64,000 nt of DNA, taken from a candidate division CPR2 bacterium GW2011_GWC2_39_35 (lineage in GTDB: Bacteria; Patescibacteriota; CPR2). Numbering within the stretch: the first letter of the stretch is position 1; each line of letters opens with the position of its first letter. Location: positions 223,708 through 287,707 of the forward strand of contig LBWX01000002.1 of NCBI GenBank assembly GCA_000995065.1. Reading direction: 5' to 3'. Of this stretch, positions 5,398 through 50,120 are shown piece after piece. A model generated the notes under the pieces. That model did no database searches. It had not been told where the DNA came from and saw only the letters and a program-made list of their open reading frames with translations. The translations under genes and the position numbers were made by a program.

Positions 5398-5473
5398 AGG
5401 CCCATAGCTCAGGGGTTAGAGCACCGTTCTTATAAAGCGGGGGTCGCGGGTTCAAATCCCGCTGGGCCTACCA
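5398..5473 (+). tRNA. tRNA with anticodon TAT (Ile, AUA-decoding), CCA encoded
   Basis: Manual cloverleaf: acceptor AGGCCCA/TGGGCCT, D-stem GCTC/GAGC, anticodon stem CCGTT/AGCGG (one G-U pair), loop CTTATAA, T-arm GCGGG-TTCAAAT-CCCGC, discriminator A then CCA. Confidence 0.7.
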
Positions 5474-39194: not shown

Positions 39195-41006
39195 CTAATC
39201 GAGAACATATTTGATAAGCTCATCCGGCTCGCCAGCTTGATGGCCCCAAAGTTTTGCATAGAGACCATTTTGTTTTATTAACTTGTCATGCGTCCCGTCT
39301 TCAACAATTTGGCCTTCGCTGAGCACCAGTATCCGATCCAGGTGCTTAATAGTTGATAGTCGGTGAGCAATAACGATCGCCGTTTTGTCTTTCATCAGCT
39401 CCCACAGACCTTCCTGTATGTATTTCTCCGATTCCGAATCAAGAGAACTCGTTGCCTCATCCAAAACAAGTATGGGAGCTTTCTTTAAAAGGGCTCTGGC
39501 AATGGCCACTCTTTGCCTTTGACCGCCTGAGAGTTTGATGCCGCGTTCTCCAACCAAAGTTTCGTATCCTTGGGGAAGTTGCTTGATAAATTCATCTGAA
39601 TGAGCAATTTTTGCTGCCTTAATAACTTCTTCTTTAGTGGCTTTTTCATTTCCGTAAGCAATATTTTCAAATAAGGATCGATGAAAAAGTAGGGGTTCTT
39701 GGGGGACATAAGAAATTGCTTGGCGAAGCGAACTTTGAGTAACAGCTCTTATCGGTTGGCCGTCAATAAGGATATCTCCGGACTCAGGATCGATAAACCT
39801 TAAAAGTAATTTTGTGATTGTCGTTTTGCCGCCTCCGCTTGGTCCAACCAGGCCAACCTTCTCTTTGGTTTTGATATCCAAAACAAAGCTCTTTAAAAAG
39901 CTATCATCATCTTCGTTGTGATCGTCAAAATAACTAAAATTGACGTTTGCAAAAGAGATGTCTCCTCTTTCTACCTTTAGCTCCTTGGCATTTTCGGCGT
40001 CTCTAATGGCTGGCGGTTCAGTAAAAAGTTGGGTAAATTCCGCCGCTTCGCTTACGGAGGATTCTAAATTGCGATAAATCTTATTGATATGCCAAAATAC
40101 TCTTGTTACTTGAGCGTAATATGAGAAAACAACAACGATCGCACCGGCATTTAAGCCGAGGGTTTGGGCAAAAAATATGGCAGCTGCTAAGCCGGCAACA
40201 TTCGTAAAGACGTAAATTGGTGAAACGACAGTATCGTAACGTAAGTTGTGAAAATCGGCTGCTTCTTTGAACTTTTTAGTGTAAAGGTCGACGTGTTCCC
40301 CAAAGACCTTGTATTCATAATCTTCTTTCGCAAAAGATTTGATCGCCAGAATATTAGTCAAAGAGTCAGATCTACGGCCGGCCAATTTACTTCCGGCATC
40401 GTGTCTTTGGGCAACAAGCTTGACTCTTTTTTTGATTATCGGTATGGCTATCGCAATCATTATAAAGATGCAAACAATCAAAATAGTGGGAATCCACGGA
40501 GAATACCGCCATAATATAAAAAAAGCAAACAGCATAGGGATAATTTCTGAAAATATATTAAAGCTAAAAACGTCAATTACCTTTTCAAAGTTCAATGGAT
40601 AGGCAATAGATTTTTTTGTTAATGTACCGACAAAATTATTGGAAAAAAAATCGTAATCTTTCTCGGCTAGTAACTTGAAAGATTTTTTAGCCAGGGTATT
40701 GATGCCCTTTGTTTCCACTTTTATCAAAAAGTGTATCCCTATTCGCCAAAGGACCTCGCCAAGCATCCATCCAAAGGCAAATAGGAAAATATAGGTTGCC
40801 GATAAAGAAAGAGAAATTTGTCCTTGGCCTACAAACGTGTCGACTAGGTGGGCTACAATCAGCGGAGGAACGTAAACAACAAGAATGCTGCCGATGCCGG
40901 GCACAATCATGGCAATAATCGATTGCCATGGGTTGGCACGCAGTTGGCCCCAGTAATCCTTAATGACTTGATTTACCGCTTTTTTTGTAATCAGTTTTTC
41001 GTTCAT
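39195..41006 (-). CDS. ABC exporter, fused permease/ATPase (MsbA-like)
   Basis: Six N-terminal transmembrane segments, Walker A GPSGGGKTT, signature LSGGQRQRVAIARAL, and Walker B ILVLDEATS. Confidence 0.9.
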   Translation of the reverse strand: MNEKLITKKAVNQVIKDYWGQLRANPWQSIIAMIVPGIGSILVVYVPPLIVAHLVDTFVGQGQISLSLSATYIFLFAFGWMLGEVLWRIGIHFLIKVETKGINTLAKKSFKLLAEKDYDFFSNNFVGTLTKKSIAYPLNFEKVIDVFSFNIFSEIIPMLFAFFILWRYSPWIPTILIVCIFIMIAIAIPIIKKRVKLVAQRHDAGSKLAGRRSDSLTNILAIKSFAKEDYEYKVFGEHVDLYTKKFKEAADFHNLRYDTVVSPIYVFTNVAGLAAAIFFAQTLGLNAGAIVVVFSYYAQVTRVFWHINKIYRNLESSVSEAAEFTQLFTEPPAIRDAENAKELKVERGDISFANVNFSYFDDHNEDDDSFLKSFVLDIKTKEKVGLVGPSGGGKTTITKLLLRFIDPESGDILIDGQPIRAVTQSSLRQAISYVPQEPLLFHRSLFENIAYGNEKATKEEVIKAAKIAHSDEFIKQLPQGYETLVGERGIKLSGGQRQRVAIARALLKKAPILVLDEATSSLDSESEKYIQEGLWELMKDKTAIVIAHRLSTIKHLDRILVLSEGQIVEDGTHDKLIKQNGLYAKLWGHQAGEPDELIKYVLD

Positions 41007-41125
41007 TCTAAGTTTGTTTCCCTACTACTAAATTAAATTATAGCAATTAATAGTTGAGTGTTAAAGAATTTGAAAGATAAAGAAGCTGAAAAATATTTTT
41101 TAAAAAAAATAGTGCTTAATAATAA

Positions 41126-41158
41126 AACCGCCGGTTGCGTGAACCCGACGGTTTTTTT
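41126..41158. terminator. Hairpin with flanking A- and T-tracts (bidirectional terminator candidate)
   Basis: aaaaCCGCCGG-ttgcgtgaac-CCGACGGttttttt. Confidence 0.45.
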
Positions 41159-41183
41159 ATTTGGATTACGGAATATGCTAAGC

Positions 41184-41996
41184 TTACTCAACCTGAAATG
41201 AACGCAGAAAGATTTCTGCTTGACTGATGGTTTGCCACAGTTTTTTTCTCTTCTCCCTAAGTTTCCGCCTCTCGTCTAAACTAAGATGTGTTAGGGAAAG
41301 CCCTGAAACATTGCGGTTAGGTACGATATTATCCAGAGAACCCACATGCGCTATTTTATCGTAATAATCATTGATATAGGCTATCTGCCTGTCAGTTAAC
41401 AGGTGACCGTACACTTTGAGAAGAATTTTTATTCTTTCAAATTCCATGGTAAGTTGCATCCAGCTCTCACTTGGACAAGGCTCGACATCTTCAGGCTTAA
41501 GATCGTTTGCAAGCTTCTCTGCTGTATCCCTTGTAAACCAACCTCCCCATGGCTGATCCCTTGAAGCACGGCGCGCAAGTTCAGCAATCTCATCTTCATA
41601 GATTTCGTCTTCGCGCTGGTATTCGTGTTCTTCGATTGCATCGGCAATGAAATAGAATAGAATCCAGTGCACAGGAAAATCTTTGGAAAGAAATAGGAGA
41701 AGATCTTCTGCACTTTCTGCGAGCTTAGTTGCAAGCTTGTTGCTAAAAACAAACTCATCAAGCAGTTCCCGGGTGTCTTGGTGTCGTATTGTTTTTATCG
41801 TGTCTTCCATTAACCGTTCGTATGGATTTCTCAGGCCAGTAACCGCCGTGGCAAAGAGCATTGCCTTAAAGATATCGTACAAATCGAGCGCATCTTGTGC
41901 CAAGAGTATTGTCTTCCCCTTTCTGTTCTCGTCAAGTTCAACAGTGACTTTGCCAATTACTTCTTCTAATGTCTGACACAAGGGATCATCAATCAT
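41184..41996 (-). CDS. Hypothetical protein (first gene of the accessory island)
   Basis: 270 aa, acidic, no recognised domain. Confidence 0.4.
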   Translation of the reverse strand: MIDDPLCQTLEEVIGKVTVELDENRKGKTILLAQDALDLYDIFKAMLFATAVTGLRNPYERLMEDTIKTIRHQDTRELLDEFVFSNKLATKLAESAEDLLLFLSKDFPVHWILFYFIADAIEEHEYQREDEIYEDEIAELARRASRDQPWGGWFTRDTAEKLANDLKPEDVEPCPSESWMQLTMEFERIKILLKVYGHLLTDRQIAYINDYYDKIAHVGSLDNIVPNRNVSGLSLTHLSLDERRKLREKRKKLWQTISQAEIFLRSFQVE

Positions 41997-42171
41997 AATC
42001 TTATTCCTTCCACTCGGAGGTTTATATTCAATTGCTAAGATTGCATGGCAATTTGCCGATGTTACAGGATATCACAAAAAGACGTTTTTGTACATAATTT
42101 CGAAGGAATTTCGAGTCGCTCCTGAATTTAACATCAAAACTGCAGTGGAAAAGAAGATAATTGCTTTAATC

Positions 42172-42251
42172 TAGTCATCCCTGTGGAAGCGGGGATTCGG
42201 GAAGAGCGTATCTAGAAAAGGTCTGGATTCCAGACTCCGCGGGAATGACAA
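42172..42251 (-). mobile_element. MITE-like element, diverged copy 1 (terminal inverted repeats GTCATCCCTGTG ... CGCGGGAATGACAA)
   Basis: Its ends align with the reverse complement of the copy at 50276-50359. It lies in the divergent promoter region of the island. Confidence 0.5.
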
Positions 42252-42491
42252 GCATTTAATTTGTAAATAATCCAAAACGCTAGAATTCCGAACATCCTCC
42301 AACAAGCTACATTCGAATTACCAATCCTTAGTATCAATAATGTACTCACGAATTAATAAAATAAGAATAAGCTTAAAAATCACTGTACTTTTTTGAGCTG
42401 TGCTTTTGATTTTCCGCCTAACATTGAAGGAACATTGAAGGAAAAATCTTTGACCAATAGTTAGATAAATGATATAATTTCAGACTAATAG

Positions 42492-45224
42492 TTGCGGTAC
42501 AGTTACTTGAAAACTGAATATTTATCAGTGAACATAGGAGATTTAGGATTAGGAAAAGGAGTGGATTTCGTGAAAGAGATAGTAGTAGAGCAAGGCGCAG
42601 GGGATGAAGAAAAAAGAATGATTGAAAACATGCGAGGGATAGCAGTGGATGATGCGGAATTCGTAATAATGGCAGAAGAAAAGAAAGACACAGTGAATAA
42701 AAAACTATGGCTTGAAAACATGACGCGGATAACCGAAGATGATCTTCAATTCGTTTCGGGCACGGCTTGGAGGTTCTATAAACAGAATTCCATACTATTG
42801 GGAATGCTGGGTATAGACTTTTGTAGCCTGGAAGATGCGGCTTTCGGCGGTATGGAGGATGCGTGTAAAAGATACGATGAGACAAGAGGAAAAAGCTTGC
42901 GAGGATTCTATTACATTCGGGTTGTCGGAAGCATGTGGGATTTCATAAGAAGCCGCTCGCTTATCTCCAGATCAGCTCTAAAGGCCATAAAGGAAGTTCA
43001 GAGCTATGTTGCAAGCCAAAGCCAAGATGGCCGTGTAGTAACAAGCTCGGAGATATATGAAATATTTTCCGAGGCTCACGTAATGGCAATGGCGCAATCT
43101 AATAACAGGGTCGCTTTTCCGCTGTCGCTGGATCAAATTGTGTTGTATGGCGGCCAAGGGGGCAGGGTACAGGCTGAGACTTCTTATCATAACCTCATTT
43201 CTGATGATAGCGATACTGAAGACGATGCGACTTACCAGCAGGCTCTTGAAGAGCTTCGTGATGTCATCAAAGAGGTTAGTCTTAACTATGGTTCGTCGCC
43301 CGAGGTGAAGGAAAGAGCATTGTCGTTAATGGAAAAACGGTATAATTTCGATAGCGACTCAAAAGCTCCTTCGTTTAGGGAGCTAGGAGATGAATTCGGT
43401 TGTACCGAAAGTCGAGTAAGCCAAATTCACAGTAAGCTAATCAGCAAGCTGAAGGATGAAGAACCTGCATTGGATATTCTTAGGGACCTGGCGAGCAGGA
43501 TTAGCCGTCAAGGCATCTCTTCTCGTCAATCTGTTCGGATAGTATCCTTTGGTCAGCCGGACCTGACTCCTCCTCCGCACATTCGCCAGAAAAGAAGAAT
43601 ATCTAAACGTGAAGATGTCTACGACAAAAATGTAGCATCAGAGGAAACGTTGTTGGAGGCGGAGGATATTGAAGTCGAAGGAGTATCCGATGACAGCAGC
43701 ACCCCTCAGGATACTAAAGCTGTTTTTTTGTTTGATTCAGACATCAGGGCCTATAAGATTATGCTCGATTTATTGAAGAAGAGCAAAGATGGATTGGTGC
43801 GACTCAAAGAAAAGCATAAGGTTACTGATGAAGTACTTCTAAAGCTTAGGCGCAAGGGCTTTGCGATAATGCAAAGTGACGGCTCTGTGCTGGTGCAGAA
43901 GAAGAAATACATCAGGATGCCAGATCCTGAGTCAGAGTCCAGGCAGGATAAAGCTGTTTTTTCTTCGAGGAAAGCTAGGATTAAAGATAGCGAACCAGGG
44001 AAACGAGGGGCGCGAAAACTCACTGATTCTGATTGGGAGGAGCGCCACAAAGAGACGCTCGCGAAACTTTATGAGCGTTTCCCAGACGGATGTGTCGTTG
44101 GCGGACTGGGGACGATCTTTATCGAACTGAATATGAGAGGAGGTTTCAATTATCTTAAGAGATTCAAAGAAGACTCCGGTTTTCTGGAGGAGACTAGTCG
44201 CCTAAGGCATAGTTTTTCTGAGAAGGCAGAAGCTTATCTGGAATCTATAGGCAAGATCCTAATCAAGACGGAACCGGAGGATGTGCCCGAAGAGTCCAAA
44301 AACATAACTGCCACATCCGGAAAACCCGGAAGACAAAAGCTCTCTTCTGACCATTGGAGTGCTCGTCATAAAGAGACGCTAAAAAAACTCTACGACCAAT
44401 TCCCCGATGGATGGGTCATTGGTGGACTGAGTACGGTCTTTAAGGATCTGGGCATTGTCGGAGGACAGAGTTATCTTCAGAGGTTCAGAGACGTATCTGG
44501 TTTCCTTCTAAAGGTCAATGGATGGAAACATTGTTTCTCTGATGAGGCAATTGCCTATCTGGAATCGATTGGGCTAACCATTATCGAGCCAGAAGAGGAC
44601 GACTCGCTGGAAACCGATGATATCTCGACTTCAGGATCAAGAAGAGGCGGAAGGCGGAAGCTTACTGATGCAGACTGGGATGTTCGTTTGAGAGTCACGG
44701 TAGAGAAGCTTCATGAACGATTCCCAGATGGGTGGATAGTCGGTTCCCTGACTGAGATCTTTAGAGACTTAGGCATCAAGGGAGGATACAACTATCTTCA
44801 CAGGTTCAGAGAGTCCTTCTACATTCGCAAGGTTAAACATAGACAACATCGCCTTACCGATATTGCCAGCAGGTATCTCGAATCGATTGGAAAGAATATA
44901 ATCGAATCGGATCCAGGGAAGTACGATCAGGAACGATTCTTGCGGTCTTCCCAAAAGGCGGTCGAGATTTTAACGCCCATGGTTAAAACTATGAAGCAAG
45001 ATGACTGGCTTGCTGAGTTCTTGAGTAATGTTGTGCAAGAGAACGGTGGCTTTTGTTACAAAACGGATCTTGAAACTACTTGCAAAGACAAATATGGTTT
45101 TGTAAAAAAAGTCATGCTTAAGACTGCACGAAATGACGGGTACGTCAGCGAGGAAAGTGGCGGTAGCGGCGAGATAACCGAAAAAGGACAGGAGTTCTTA
45201 AGACAGAAGGGCTATATTAACTAA
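42492..45224 (+). CDS. Sigma-70-family-like protein (regions 2 and 4) fused to a ~590-aa C-terminal extension with three ~95-aa tandem repeats
   Basis: Region 2-like YDETRGKSLRGFYYIRVVGSMWDFIRSRS and region 4-like FRELGDEFGCTESRVSQIHSKLISKLK. Three repeats of LTD.DWE.RHKETL.KLYE.FPDGWV.GGL.T.F..LGI.GG..YL.RF...SGFL......S..A.AYLESIG. The gene looks locally GC-richer. Confidence 0.55.
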   Translation: MRYSYLKTEYLSVNIGDLGLGKGVDFVKEIVVEQGAGDEEKRMIENMRGIAVDDAEFVIMAEEKKDTVNKKLWLENMTRITEDDLQFVSGTAWRFYKQNSILLGMLGIDFCSLEDAAFGGMEDACKRYDETRGKSLRGFYYIRVVGSMWDFIRSRSLISRSALKAIKEVQSYVASQSQDGRVVTSSEIYEIFSEAHVMAMAQSNNRVAFPLSLDQIVLYGGQGGRVQAETSYHNLISDDSDTEDDATYQQALEELRDVIKEVSLNYGSSPEVKERALSLMEKRYNFDSDSKAPSFRELGDEFGCTESRVSQIHSKLISKLKDEEPALDILRDLASRISRQGISSRQSVRIVSFGQPDLTPPPHIRQKRRISKREDVYDKNVASEETLLEAEDIEVEGVSDDSSTPQDTKAVFLFDSDIRAYKIMLDLLKKSKDGLVRLKEKHKVTDEVLLKLRRKGFAIMQSDGSVLVQKKKYIRMPDPESESRQDKAVFSSRKARIKDSEPGKRGARKLTDSDWEERHKETLAKLYERFPDGCVVGGLGTIFIELNMRGGFNYLKRFKEDSGFLEETSRLRHSFSEKAEAYLESIGKILIKTEPEDVPEESKNITATSGKPGRQKLSSDHWSARHKETLKKLYDQFPDGWVIGGLSTVFKDLGIVGGQSYLQRFRDVSGFLLKVNGWKHCFSDEAIAYLESIGLTIIEPEEDDSLETDDISTSGSRRGGRRKLTDADWDVRLRVTVEKLHERFPDGWIVGSLTEIFRDLGIKGGYNYLHRFRESFYIRKVKHRQHRLTDIASRYLESIGKNIIESDPGKYDQERFLRSSQKAVEILTPMVKTMKQDDWLAEFLSNVVQENGGFCYKTDLETTCKDKYGFVKKVMLKTARNDGYVSEESGGSGEITEKGQEFLRQKGYIN

Positions 45225-45298
45225 ACTGTATAGGCGAGGTGACAAAAGGGACCGGTTCTTAATTTGAAGCTAATACTACTTAATGTTTTATTAAGTAA

Positions 45299-45790
45299 AT
45301 GCTTCATTTTAAGAATCGGTCCCGAATTATTTATGGGTTTTACTTCTCAATTACTCATGAAGACGATGAAATGAGAGGCCTTATTAGCAAAACCGACCAC
45401 AAGACACTGGCTCTTTGGAGTATTGATTGTGCGGAAAGAGTTATGCACTATTTTGAAACAGAATACACCGATGATCCTCGGCCTCGCGAAGCTATCAACA
45501 CTCTTCAGGAATGGATTAAAACGAGTAAATTCAGTATGAGGATTATCCGTCAAGCATCGTTAGCCTCACACGCCGCAGCCAAAGAGATTGGCAATGATAG
45601 TCCGGCTGCATCCGCAGCACATGCAGCTGGACAAGCCGTTGCGACTGCTCATGTATCAACGCATTCTTATGGACCTGCCGTATATGCTCAACAAGCTGTT
45701 TTTAAAGCTACAAACTCGTTAGACGCTGTTCAAAAAGAGAGGGATTGGCAATTTCAGCATTTGCTAGACCTTGGGGCCAAGAAGTACTAA
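45299..45790 (+). CDS. Putative immunity-protein-like all-alpha protein (LALW..DCAE..PRPRE family, Ala/His-rich)
   Basis: HKTLALWSIDCAERVMHYFE, DDPRPREAINTLQEWI, and the AASAAHAAGQAVATAHVSTH repeat typical of small orphan 'immunity protein' ORFs. The likely start is the internal MRGLIS. Confidence 0.5.
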   Translation: MLHFKNRSRIIYGFYFSITHEDDEMRGLISKTDHKTLALWSIDCAERVMHYFETEYTDDPRPREAINTLQEWIKTSKFSMRIIRQASLASHAAAKEIGNDSPAASAAHAAGQAVATAHVSTHSYGPAVYAQQAVFKATNSLDAVQKERDWQFQHLLDLGAKKY

Positions 45791-46075
45791 TTGCGACAAA
45801 TAAGTACTTAGCAGATTAGATTATTTGCATCATTAATAAAATAAGCTACCGAGAAATAGCTTATTAAGTATGCGTTCCATTTGGCGAGCCGAGATGTGCT
45901 TGAACTACTTCGTTTAACCGTGTTAATTTCAGACGTTCGTACTAGTATCTAGTTTCCATAATATGTATGATCAAATTAGATTAATAATGGGGTTATATGT
46001 GGGAGAAAATTAAAGATACTGTACTTTTGCATCAAGCGCAAAGCATAGTATTGTCTTTGATCGTTATTATCGGTA

Positions 46076-46426
46076 TTGCAGGCACCAGCTACTTTGTATT
46101 TCAAAAAGGTAATTCAAAATAATAATACGAAAGAAGGCACTCCTAGCAGTAGTACGGGGTCGTGCAGTGGGTTAGTCAAGTTTGGTGCCGTCTCAGTGGA
46201 GAAAGATCCGGCAGGAGATTCGGGGGCGTGGTTACGATTCGGCTATACGGCCGAAAAGGAGCTTAATTGTCAGTACACGATCACCTTCTACGACAGTCGA
46301 GAAGAGATAATCCGAACAATCCCAAATGTTGAAGATACCTTTCAATCTCCGAGCGGCCAGATCTATAATGGCTACAGCAGTACACCCTACCAATCAGGCA
46401 TGTCTGCAAAAGTTATCGTCAACTAG
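46076..46426 (+). CDS. Hypothetical small secreted protein (start uncertain; an overlapping upstream 41-aa transmembrane ORF sits in the -1 frame)
   Basis: 116 aa with a Ser/Thr-rich N-terminus and no known domain. Confidence 0.35.
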   Translation: MQAPATLYFKKVIQNNNTKEGTPSSSTGSCSGLVKFGAVSVEKDPAGDSGAWLRFGYTAEKELNCQYTITFYDSREEIIRTIPNVEDTFQSPSGQIYNGYSSTPYQSGMSAKVIVN

Positions 46427-46516
46427 TTTATAGTTCAGAGATTATAAAAACGCAAATACCGTGCTCAAAAGAGAACCGTCCCCTAAAAGTCTTACTGGAA
46501 CTATTCAATACTTACT

Positions 46517-47530
46517 TCATTCCTTTGAAGTGTATTTGAAGTTCACATCACGTTGTTTGGTAGGGAGCTGAAAACCGTCAATTTCAAAGGGATATGCAAG
46601 CACCCCGCCGGGGAAAGTCGCGTCGGGGCTGTAGCTCTTCCAATAGAAGAACGAGGTTGGCTGAACCCAATGCAGATTTTGGTTGCCCTGTTTTACGGTC
46701 AGATTTTTTGATTTGTCTGGCACCTTGAAACAAAATGAAGCAAAGGAGTGCTCGCCCACGTTCCCGGCATATCCGACCAGCTCCCCTCGTTTTACCGTCC
46801 GACCAATGAGCGCTTTGCAGGCTTTGGCGTTACCTTTCGAGGGAACTACATAATCATCAACTGGATAGAAAAGATGCCCTTCGGCCTGGTTATTTTTAGC
46901 GCCCCATTCAACATCATCACAATCTGAATTTTGGTAGTGCCCTTGCATTAAAGGCGAAGTATATAAATGATAAAGAATAATAGTCATTCCTGGCCAGTCA
47001 GGACTAGCAGATTCAAAAGTCAGCTCGATATCATTCATCGGTGTGTATTTTTTCCCGTCTGCTCCAATCCCAGATTCGCTGCTTTGATTCTTGAAACCAA
47101 CCAATGTCATATCTATTGGCGCAAGTAATGGTGCCTTGCTCTTAAGTTCGAATTCCATGCCACGCTTACCAGAATATGGCGTCGTCTTTGAATGAGAACC
47201 AACTTTGGGGCCGAGAGTAACAATATCTGAGTCAGCCCCTGTACCACCATACATTTCCGTATGAGTATTAATACCTTCCATGTTGGATGGGGGTGAAGTA
47301 ATCGCGGATACGCTTGTTGTGGGTACAGTTGGGATAGAAGTTGGCGAAGACATAGTGCTTGGTATCGATTTTTTGCTCTGTTTTTTTCCAGCCTTATTCA
47401 CTATTCCAAGACCAGCCAAAGCAAGTACAATTACAATAATAATTAAAATAAGCCCCATCCACCAATATTTTTTTAAGAAAGGTTTTTTGCTTGAAGGCTC
47501 ATTTTTCTCTTGATTGTTATCCAGCTCCAT
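46517..47530 (-). CDS. Membrane-anchored LytM/M23-like domain protein with degenerate active-site motifs
   Basis: Transmembrane helix, Ser/Thr/Pro-rich linker, and VKRGELVGYAGNVGEHSFASFCFKV resembling the M23 C-terminal G.V.kGq.IG.vG.TG.stGPHLHFE but lacking the HxH. Confidence 0.35.
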   Translation of the reverse strand: MELDNNQEKNEPSSKKPFLKKYWWMGLILIIIVIVLALAGLGIVNKAGKKQSKKSIPSTMSSPTSIPTVPTTSVSAITSPPSNMEGINTHTEMYGGTGADSDIVTLGPKVGSHSKTTPYSGKRGMEFELKSKAPLLAPIDMTLVGFKNQSSESGIGADGKKYTPMNDIELTFESASPDWPGMTIILYHLYTSPLMQGHYQNSDCDDVEWGAKNNQAEGHLFYPVDDYVVPSKGNAKACKALIGRTVKRGELVGYAGNVGEHSFASFCFKVPDKSKNLTVKQGNQNLHWVQPTSFFYWKSYSPDATFPGGVLAYPFEIDGFQLPTKQRDVNFKYTSKE

Positions 47531-47616
47531 TTGCTATAACTATACCACAAAATTAGCTTATTTTAGTATGCGTTCTATTCGGCGAGGTTAGTAGCGTTGG
47601 AACCTGCTCAAAATTC

Positions 47617-48306
47617 CTAACTTATATCCAAATCCCAAAGGATTGTCTTGAATAGTTCGTCACGATATTGGTTTAAAAAGTCATGATTTCCGTCAAGATT
47701 GATAATTCGGCTATTCTTTATGAGCCTAAGATTGTTGAAATCCATAACCTCGTCATTGATTGCATAAATAAGGGTAAGTTCGGTTTTCTTCGCTAGATTG
47801 TTGTAAAGTGAAACTACATCTGTTGTAAATCTTTCAGCCCAGTATTCTGGAGGGATGACAGTCACAGAACCATCGCTTCTACGTCTTCGGGTAATGTTGT
47901 AGAAATCTAATTGATTATCGGCAAGAGCCGTATAACGTTTCTGTAAATCTTCGATTTTAGTTTGAAAAAATGGTGATACTCCGATCACTTTTTCTACCTT
48001 GTCCGAGTTTTGACAGAGAGTTGGTATTAGGCTTCCCTGTGAATGCCCGATGATAATAATACTTTTGTATCTCTCGTCCCTGACTAGCTCATTGATGTGT
48101 TTCTGAAGGATGGACGCCTGGTCAGAAAAAGGTACAGCAAAAAGCTCCTTAGAATCCCCATCAAACTTATTGTAATTAAATTGTTTTGTTACAAATCCCC
48201 GTGATTCTAGCATAGACGCTAAAAAGGAAAATAGTCCTCGGGCATCTTTCATAACCCCAAAGCCATGCGAAAATAATATTACTGTATCTTGTGGTTTGTA
48301 TTTCAT
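47617..48306 (-). CDS. Alpha/beta-hydrolase fold protein
   Basis: Nucleophile elbow IIIGHSQGS and N-terminal HGFG. Confidence 0.6.
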   Translation of the reverse strand: MKYKPQDTVILFSHGFGVMKDARGLFSFLASMLESRGFVTKQFNYNKFDGDSKELFAVPFSDQASILQKHINELVRDERYKSIIIIGHSQGSLIPTLCQNSDKVEKVIGVSPFFQTKIEDLQKRYTALADNQLDFYNITRRRRSDGSVTVIPPEYWAERFTTDVVSLYNNLAKKTELTLIYAINDEVMDFNNLRLIKNSRIINLDGNHDFLNQYRDELFKTILWDLDIS

Positions 48307-48493
48307 GTCTAGATATTAGCAAAAAAAGTGCTTTGCAGAAAGGCTATTTTGCGTCATTAACAGAAATAAGCTGACCAAAGTCAGCTTATTCAGGATCTTA
48401 GGACAACCGGCCCCTAAGGCTTTCCTATTTTAACCACCACCAAAGGTGGTTGTGAAAATATGGCGATCCGAGTAGCGCAGGAACTAAATTAGA

Positions 48494-49879
48494 CTAAATA
48501 GTTGTAAAATAAGTTTTAAATTCACCTCTTTTGGCAATGATTTCCTTCAACTTTGCGCTATCGATACCCAACACACTTAGCAGTGATATTTTCATATATA
48601 TCTCTAGAACGATATTTACTCTAAACAATTCGACTGACGTAAGCAACTTATTTGAGCTCATTTTTAATGCATGCACGTAATTATTCCTAGTGTTTACAAT
48701 CTTTTTAATAATTTCATCATCCAATCCAATAGCTCCAGCATCTATGCAAAACGCCTCAATATCCTTCATTTTTCCCCTTAAAGAAAATTCAAAACCAAAA
48801 GCTGCCATGCTTTTTAATTTTTCTGCGTCGTCTTCAGATAGCGGCGCCGTTACTTTTTTCAACCATTCTTTATGCTCTTTCTTCCGCTTGTCAGTTACTG
48901 GATTGAGAAATCTTTTATGGAAAGATTCAACCGAAGATATCAGAGATAAAAATTTTGTAATGTCGGAAGCATTACCACTCCGACATGTTTTGATTGATTC
49001 CCATATTTCTCTTATTTCTTCATAATTATTAAACCAATATTTAATCATATTTTTCTTGATTTCATCTCTGATGTCCTCAAATTCAAATAACAACGAATAA
49101 GCACTTTCTCTCTCTGGCAATTGAAATGTGGCTGGAGAACTCAAGGATATTATGCTTAAAGTTGGGCTAATTTTTTTGCGAGGTCCTTTAAGATCTGAAG
49201 AAAAAATAATTTGATTAGTTTGCTCTTTAAATAAAAAGTTAAAAAATTCCTCAACAACTTTTAACATTATGACGGCTGACCAATAAGTCTGCTCATTAGA
49301 GAACTCAATTCTAATTAAATCATTATGAACTGCCCTAAATGATCTATCATATTGAAAATCAACTTGAAAATTCGTACTCATTTTCAAAGTACCATATGGC
49401 GGCAGTTCTACATCAAAATAATAGTTTTTTTTGTTCTTAAAACTTCTTGAATCACCATCAAAGTCTAGCAAGTTATCGTTAAAGAAAGTGTGAATGCCAG
49501 GTATTTCGCACTCAATATTCTTGATTTTCACTGGTATTTCCTTGTTACTCCAATTCTGTACAACGGCTAGCATCGAAGTAAAGTAAAGATCACTTTTACT
49601 GTAGAAGGGAATTCTTTTGTAGCCATTGAGATCGAATAATTTTATGCGAGAAAAATCACTTTTAGCTGCCGCATAATTAAATTTTTTAGGAAAATCTTCT
49701 AAATTTTTCCCTTGAATGTTCAATTCGAGGGATAAATCTGGAAAGCTTAGAAAGCCGTTCTTTTTTATTCCATTTCCAAAGGACCACATTCTTTTTTCTT
49801 TATAAGCATACAGTCCGTCAACTTTCGTGGTTAAGTCAATGTATGGTTCTTTAGAGAAAATTGTATTATTCTTTGCCAT
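48494..49879 (-). CDS. Hypothetical protein with C-terminal HEPN-like Rx4H motif (Abi/ApeA-like defence candidate)
   Basis: KIVNTRNNYVHA (R-x4-H) about 55 residues from the C-terminus in a predicted helical region. No other recognisable domain. Confidence 0.35.
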   Translation of the reverse strand: MAKNNTIFSKEPYIDLTTKVDGLYAYKEKRMWSFGNGIKKNGFLSFPDLSLELNIQGKNLEDFPKKFNYAAAKSDFSRIKLFDLNGYKRIPFYSKSDLYFTSMLAVVQNWSNKEIPVKIKNIECEIPGIHTFFNDNLLDFDGDSRSFKNKKNYYFDVELPPYGTLKMSTNFQVDFQYDRSFRAVHNDLIRIEFSNEQTYWSAVIMLKVVEEFFNFLFKEQTNQIIFSSDLKGPRKKISPTLSIISLSSPATFQLPERESAYSLLFEFEDIRDEIKKNMIKYWFNNYEEIREIWESIKTCRSGNASDITKFLSLISSVESFHKRFLNPVTDKRKKEHKEWLKKVTAPLSEDDAEKLKSMAAFGFEFSLRGKMKDIEAFCIDAGAIGLDDEIIKKIVNTRNNYVHALKMSSNKLLTSVELFRVNIVLEIYMKISLLSVLGIDSAKLKEIIAKRGEFKTYFTTI

Positions 49880-50043
49880 ATTTCACAAAAATTAGCATAC
49901 CGATCGGCATGCTAATTGCTTAGTAGGTCGACCGGTGGTTAATCGGTCTGTTATTTATTATTATTTGCCCTTCGACAAGCTCTCCTCGAGTCTGAGCGAC
50001 CTCGGAGTCGAAGACAGGGCATTTTCCGCCTTGCGGCGTAAAA

Positions 50044-50120
50044 TGGCGACCCGGACCAGACTCGAACTGGCGACCTCCTGCGTGACAGGCAGGCGTTCTA
50101 ACCAACTGAACTACCGGGCC
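50044..50120 (-). tRNA. tRNA-Asp(GTC), CCA encoded
   Basis: Reverse complement GGCCCGG..GCTT.., anticodon arm CCTGC-CTGTCAC-GCAGG, T-arm CGCCA-GTTCGAG-TCTGG, 3' GGTCGCCA. Confidence 0.85.

Follow-up and report, generated by a model that had tools for sequence, protein, structure and literature searches.

A stand-alone Imm5-like gene of a candidate division CPR2 bacterium and its conserved relatives in bacteria and archaea

We have identified a stand-alone ("orphan") Imm5-like gene, with no toxin gene in cis, in the candidate division CPR2 bacterium GW2011_GWC2_39_35. The gene lies at 45299..45790 on the + strand of a 64,000-nucleotide stretch of contig LBWX01000002.1, hereafter the window, and encodes 163 aa plus a stop codon. 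Its product is a cytoplasmic all-alpha protein and a member of the Imm5/Imm5_like superfamily. Sequence comparison places the protein in a clade of patchy distribution that has crossed between bacteria and archaea several times, with identity remaining at about 70%. Our preferred reading, held tentatively, is pre-emptive or orphan immunity, in which the protein would bind stoichiometrically to a conserved, trans-acting toxin that works in the cytoplasm. A role outside immunity is nearly as likely as toxin neutralisation. The Imm5-like fold could plausibly serve an accessory function instead (binding of a metal, cofactor, nucleotide or small-molecule toxin, or an enzymatic activity), in which case the label "putative immunity protein" would be annotation by resemblance only.

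The open reading frame proposed at this position by a first-pass annotation exists as described, on the + strand with 163 codons before the stop, and both motifs quoted for it are present. That annotation had recognised an immunity family from the raw sequence, and a Pfam profile search bore this out with a match to PF21805 (Imm5_like) at an E-value of 8.2e-40 and 136.1 bits, against a gathering cut-off of 25 bits; given this score, the quoted motifs are not a chance resemblance. The domain envelope spans residues 28-156 (45380..45766, +) and profile positions 2-127 of 129. Imm5 proper (PF14423) matched below threshold (18.5 bits against a 25-bit cut-off, E 0.0023), as did DUF6931 (PF22011), weakly, at E 0.003. 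PF14423 and PF21805 appear together in the precomputed annotation of many close homologues. The quoted stretch LALWSIDCAERV...DDPRPREA corresponds to residues 37-65 (45407-45493), an N-terminal signature, LALWSIDCAERVMHYFETEYTDDPRPREA (45407..45493, +), that comprises a helix, a short helix and a DxRPR loop. The Ala/His-rich helix AASAAHAAGQAVATAHVSTH covers residues 103-122 (45605..45664, +) and carries the conserved residues G111, H118 and H122. No model matching the 163-aa protein was found in NCBIfam or PADLOC, and a PDB sequence search with either the protein or a 72-sequence profile as the query returned no meaningful match to any chain.

Translation probably begins at the ATG at 45299, as residues 16-25 (FSITHEDDEM) line up with the N-terminal stretch conserved in the homologues (FSITxKDEEM); this ATG is also the sole start codon 5' of that stretch. 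GC content at third codon positions (GC3) of the gene is 0.366, against a window mean of 0.376. A value this close to the mean indicates that the gene is adapted to the host genome and is a long-term resident, and recent acquisition of the gene was rejected on the same ground. Long residence at the host's average composition would also suit a function outside immunity. A Rifle-aquifer metagenome scaffold (L081) is 99.83% identical to the window over 39299-48306, and the only difference in its first 8.9 kb is an in-frame 6-bp indel at 45635..45640 (+), at codons A113-V114. The indel removes these two residues from the family-invariant GQAVATAH helix, and P0001 is without the "AV".

The structure of the 163-aa protein was modelled with AlphaFold2 from 72 sequences (mean pLDDT 90, pTM 0.84). 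The model contains eight helices and zero strands, with disorder limited to residues 1-13. In the N-terminal signature, helices at residues 34-46 and 49-53 are followed by a loop at 54-60; around AASAAHAAGQAVATAHVSTH, a helix at 102-117 is followed by the start of a helix at 120-138. Foldseek gave chain B of 7jtu, the protein SsdAI, as the best PDB match (probability 1.00, TM 0.58/0.50), and by its other measures the match is moderate to weak (E 0.067, 11% identity, rmsd 7.1 A). SsdAI is the immunity protein of SsdA, a type VI secretion system toxin that deaminates cytosine in single-stranded DNA and falls in the DYW subgroup of deaminases (PMC7901873). It is exclusively alpha-helical and inhibits the toxin by means of a loop that carries two short helical segments and enters the active site (PMC7901873). 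The next credible match was to DUF416/YjaG (2q9r; TM 0.59/0.51, rmsd 4.4 A, probability 0.82), and matches to copper-storage, YtfE and globin folds had low probability. The best viral match was to a phage protein named "Imm-5-like domain-containing" (TM 0.65, rmsd 2.7 A). The closeness to immunity proteins extends to the predicted fold, whose nearest solved relative is a proven deaminase-toxin immunity protein, through a match that is weak at E 0.067. Sequence and modelled structure agree on the placement of the protein, with a structural score that is moderate. That a genuine immunity protein is the nearest match among solved structures speaks against a role outside immunity, as do the nearest Pfam relatives, Imm5 and, for one multi-domain relative (P0121), Imm6, both of which are deaminase-toxin immunity families.

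The gene sits directly 3' of a 910-aa sigma-like repeat protein (42492..45224, +), as the first-pass annotation had it; the two are co-oriented and separated by a 74-bp spacer (45225..45298, +). A promoter and terminator scan of this spacer found no consensus promoter or terminator on the + strand, with site counts not above those of shuffled controls. Residues ~112-322 of the 910-aa protein gave FliA/WhiG-type sigma matches, all of them under the curated cut-offs, and Pfam added a weak Sigma70_r4 match (E 1.6e-4). Three internal repeats of ~105 aa could be read from the translation, at residues 507-592, 613-700 and 719-806, after which a ~100-aa tail closes the protein. This is an orphan architecture, with a FliA-like sigma region joined to three repeats and a tail. 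Encoded divergently from the sigma-like gene is a 270-aa protein (41184-41996, - strand) whose only recognisable feature is a YlxM/p13-like helix-turn-helix at residues 188-215 (E 4e-5).

It had been suggested that the C-terminus of the 910-aa protein might be a novel toxin module, for which the Imm5-like gene would provide the cognate immunity. The co-orientation, the 74-bp distance and the absence of a detectable terminator in the spacer would fit such a pair, and for the C-terminal ~400 residues neither a known family nor a database homologue was found. A Pfam scan of the whole protein and of five sub-segments, with E-values admitted up to 5, found no toxin or trafficking domain, in agreement with the original remark that none was recognisable; LXG, WXG, PAAR, RHS and filamentous-haemagglutinin repeats were likewise absent. 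The tail gave sub-threshold noise only (Rho_RNA_bind, E 0.005; winged-helix HTH_45, E 0.07), a search with the last 192 residues (719-910) found no homologue in the database, and the C-terminus gave no usable structure in a single-sequence AlphaFold2 model (pLDDT 46). At its N-terminus the protein has a FliA-like sigma region and not a secretion or trafficking module, and three tandem repeats plus a tail are unlike the lone cassette with which polymorphic toxins typically end. No homologue of the 910-aa protein lies upstream of other Imm5-like genes in the loci examined, and an immunity protein that is 65-70% identical among archaea and bacteria cannot co-evolve with a protein unique to one genome. 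The toxin-module proposal therefore did not hold up, both on domain content and for want of a related upstream gene elsewhere, and we consider a cognate pair hardly credible. The 910-aa protein is a sigma-like protein of DNA-binding type; no test run marked it as a toxin, and it is not a conserved partner.

Small all-alpha proteins can serve as anti-sigma factors, and the Imm5-like protein might accordingly be a co-transcribed regulatory partner, for example anti-sigma-like, of its neighbour. Adjacency, shared orientation and the short spacer devoid of consensus promoter or terminator are what one would expect of such a partner. However, no similarity to any anti-sigma family was found in Pfam or NCBIfam, and homologues stand beside unrelated genes, often with a divergent gene upstream. 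The adjacency is particular to this genome, which makes pairing with the sigma-like protein unlikely and leaves a regulatory partnership with a very slim chance.

The window as a whole is a bacterial chromosomal segment encoding FtsH, LepA, MurJ, an L,D-transpeptidase, RecQ and nine tRNAs, the last including a tRNA-Ile with anticodon TAT at 5398-5473 alongside two tRNA-Met(CAT) genes (ARAGORN). A scan of 10 further window ORFs, which included 9 of the largest, gave no match to a toxin family. The proposal that the gene is kept in a defence island did not survive a PADLOC scan, in which an ApeA-like HEPN gene (48494..49879, -), 2.7 kb away, was the only gene of defence type near the Imm5-like gene, the RecQ matches reflecting generic helicase homology. 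With a single gene of this type, we rejected the island. The ApeA-like gene matched Pfam HEPN_Apea at E 8e-15 and the PADLOC models Cas13-ApeA and PDC-S58 at E 1e-21 to 1e-23; its GC content is 0.323 (z = -2.6), and it adjoins a tRNA-Asp at 50044-50120. The identity of scaffold L081 to the window decays just before this gene, with 9 clustered mismatches at 48214-48300 and an end at 48306. On sequence, window 48214-50120 looks like a strain-variable, recently acquired islet. A polyimmunity array is absent, as the flanking ORFs at 46076-46426, 46517-47530 and 47617-48306 match no immunity family. The first of these, a 116-aa ORF on the + strand 3' of the Imm5-like gene, has no family match and shows the region's highest GC3 (0.496, z = 2.7). 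Gene calling on the sibling contig L081 did not include it, and for that reason it may be non-coding.

Relatives of the protein are numerous. Database searches returned 2292 homologues, and the 120 listed were 64-71% identical, save one copy at 99%; among the matches listed, lengths were almost all 150-175 aa. A profile search of 1.84 billion representatives yielded 3990 clusters at E < 1e-3, of which 96 fell below 1e-30. When one genome was scanned for each GTDB species, at least 205 loci were confirmed, and 80 of these were fetched. The fetched loci were chiefly from Chloroflexota, with others from Planctomycetota and Actinomycetota, and carriers among CPR bacteria included Gracilibacteria, Dojkabacteria, Peregrinibacteria and Nealsonbacteria. 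Archaeal carriers were many, among them Methanosarcina, Methanomicrobiales, Asgard, Bathyarchaeia, Micrarchaeota and Woesearchaeota. Two metagenome-assembled genomes, Candidatus ainarchaeum STA_81 and Chloroflexia MFD05942.bin.2.115, each hold the conserved Imm5-like gene twice, on different contigs (L049/L054 and L053/L057).

Mean pairwise identity over the domain was 0.70 within Archaea, 0.70 within Bacteria and 0.69 between the two, and the nearest neighbour of a sequence lay across the bacteria-archaea boundary in about half of cases. Flat identity together with cross-domain nearest neighbours points to a protein under strong constraint that was transferred repeatedly between the domains. 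Errors in the binning of metagenome-assembled genomes could inflate this transfer signal, and many of the loci lie on contigs of 0.1-2.7 Mb. Residue conservation was assessed in 111 full-length representatives clustered at 50% identity, which are 33-62% identical to the window protein. Conserved in at least 80% of them are W40, C44, F52, E53, D59, R61, P62, R63 and A65, and also W72, R84, H91, R95, R108, H118, H122 and Y129. By inspection, the signature at residues 37-65 is kept in every repeat of the 12-domain relative P0121, and across the sequences compared no other part of the superfamily is as widely conserved. Such conservation is atypical for immunity proteins, and the polar signature (Cys/His/Arg/Asp/Glu) looks more like that of a ligand, metal or active site than like one expected in an immunity protein that evolves fast. 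The ~70% identity across the bacteria-archaea divide without taxonomic structure, and the set of one Cys, three His, four Arg, Asp, Glu and Tyr residues that recurs in at least 80% of the 111 representatives, both argue for a function outside immunity. On the other side, no match to an enzyme or metal-binding family was found.

The neighbourhoods of the homologues were compared by calling ORFs in the fetched loci and clustering the neighbour proteins. No recurrent neighbour family emerged in 70 loci; the largest non-self cluster spanned 5-7 loci, and one of the largest neighbour clusters was an antisense ORF of the Imm5-like gene itself. The upstream gene was co-oriented in 41 of 66 loci and divergent in the other 25, and in only 9 of the 66 was it both co-oriented and within 50 bp. 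Co-oriented upstream proteins shared domains only between closely related genomes; the large ones were UvrB, ClpB, a PAS histidine kinase, radical SAM enzymes, a T2SS-F protein and Nre, together with three that had no Pfam match. When 65 upstream and 66 downstream neighbours were scanned with Pfam, the matches were scattered over housekeeping and miscellaneous families (radical SAM, CorA, ADH, APH, flavodoxin, methyltransferases, GNAT, AzlC), and PADLOC matched generic kinase, helicase and methyltransferase domains only. Independent gene calls on long contigs gave the same scattered contexts. In this clade the gene is almost always single-domain and appears to lie outside operons. Across about 70 contexts, no toxin domain was found in the immediate neighbours. 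The first-pass annotation had offered an orphan immunity gene as an alternative, and with no toxin partner in the window or beside the homologues, the orphan status was supported. It had also held that homologues consistently unlinked to toxin or defence contexts would refute the immunity assignment, and consistently unlinked is how they were found in this clade.

The lack of toxin or defence neighbours in the loci examined is equally a point in favour of a function outside immunity. Five RefSeq-annotated plasmid contexts, in which the Imm5-like gene is labelled "putative immunity protein", have GrpB, GNAT, APH, VOC, TetR, SDR and ABC genes as neighbours. The contexts from cultured strains are rich in genes for small-molecule resistance and stress (VOC, GNAT, APH, GrpB, TetR, DrrA-type ABC and DHFR-family), as an accessory function might predict, but this pattern is weak and may be mere accessory-genome background. 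Three divergent representatives (P0253, P0160 and P0204) are on contigs of only 0.9-2 kb that offer no usable context, and the Embleya record carries no annotation over the stretch with the homologue. A tblastn search of 50,697 phage genomes gave no match to the Imm5-like protein, and a scan of IMG/VR viral contigs with the clade motifs gave no confirmed relative. The tight clade is therefore not found on known phages, although the distant phage fold match exists. A tblastn search of plasmids with the Ala-rich, actinobacterial-type P0253 gave no match, probably as a result of the low-complexity filter.

The wider family includes giant proteins. P0121 (L086 7395-14627) is 2410 aa long and consists of 12 tandem Imm5_like units, and its contig, which carries many small ORFs without a known family and two further Imm5_like genes, looks like a mobile element or phage. 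P0141, at 3069 aa, combines 10 tandem Imm5_like units with a NUDIX domain. Single fusions occur occasionally, to the DinB-like DUF1706 and to DUF1801, and none to other immunity domains. Fusion partners of this kind (DUF1706, DUF1801, NUDIX) would suit a function outside immunity, but tandem arrays of 10 to 12 domains are hard to square with an enzyme. The arrays resemble the polyimmunity proteins known from toxin-less loci (PMC3482391), and this resemblance is the best contextual argument for the family as toxin-neutralising modules.

Among named systems, the window protein is a full-length, high-scoring member of PF21805 with the same ~150-aa single-domain size as its homologues. Nothing sets it apart from that family, whose own function is only putative, and a literature search by family names and accessions found no experimental study of Imm5_like or DUF6931. 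Within PF21805, the clade of the window protein is an unusually conserved branch that has been transferred between domains. Imm5 is a mostly alpha-helical protein with conserved R and D residues and the partner of DYW deaminases and CdiA-CT, and its adjacency to toxins has been found in Actinobacteria, Bacteroidetes, Firmicutes and Proteobacteria (PMC3482391). The window protein is likewise mostly alpha-helical, and its sequence is distantly similar to Imm5 (E 0.0023). D59, R61 and R63 are conserved in its family and may correspond to the R and D of Imm5. Unlike Imm5, the homologues showed no DYW-deaminase or CdiA-CT adjacency in 66 loci, the majority of them from Chloroflexota, CPR bacteria and archaea. 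The gene for SsdAI accompanies that of its toxin; the window gene is without a toxin partner. Both proteins are all-alpha, and in the model the short helix and conserved loop at residues 49-60 may be comparable to the inserted element of SsdAI. DUF416/YjaG (2q9r) and DUF6931 (PF22011) are all-alpha and similar in size to the window protein; both matches are sub-threshold and both families are of unknown function, so they add no functional information.

Imm5 also occurs in polyimmunity proteins of toxin-less loci, and toxin-less polyimmunity and orphan immunity genes have been proposed to pre-empt toxins delivered by non-kin (PMC3482391). The window gene resembles these in being an immunity-family gene without a toxin, and giant Imm5_like proteins of 10 to 12 domains exist. 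Polyimmunity loci are tandem co-oriented arrays, whereas the window holds a single gene. Since no toxin linkage was found for the clade, the case for an immunity role is one of homology and family resemblance. That the protein confers immunity, and on which target it would act, we infer from family and fold. Under pre-emptive immunity, a conserved cytoplasm-acting toxin would arrive in trans, with a nucleic-acid deaminase of the DYW/BaDTF2 type as the prime candidate. The Imm5-like protein would bind it stoichiometrically and occlude its active site, and the short helix and DxRPR loop (residues 49-63) would be the likely contact element.

The window gene should not be taken as a sign that the sigma-like protein conceals a toxin or that a defence island is present. 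Its relevance lies in the family, since thousands of genes are annotated "putative immunity protein" through PF21805, and it poses a puzzle: a supposed immunity-type clade that is never toxin-linked in about 70 contexts is yet conserved across both domains. Either a very conserved trans-acting toxin exists, with implications for antagonism between the domains in which CPR and DPANN organisms would take part, or the annotation is misleading and needs revisiting. More speculatively, and with rather low probability, the clade may represent one orphan immunity determinant, under strong constraint and exchanged among Chloroflexota, CPR, methanogens, Asgard and DPANN or, conversely, may carry a wrong label, its Cys/His/Arg residues serving an undescribed ligand or metal function. 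In the former case, one conserved class of cytoplasm-acting toxin, perhaps a deaminase, would be deployed across the bacteria-archaea boundary in the anoxic subsurface.
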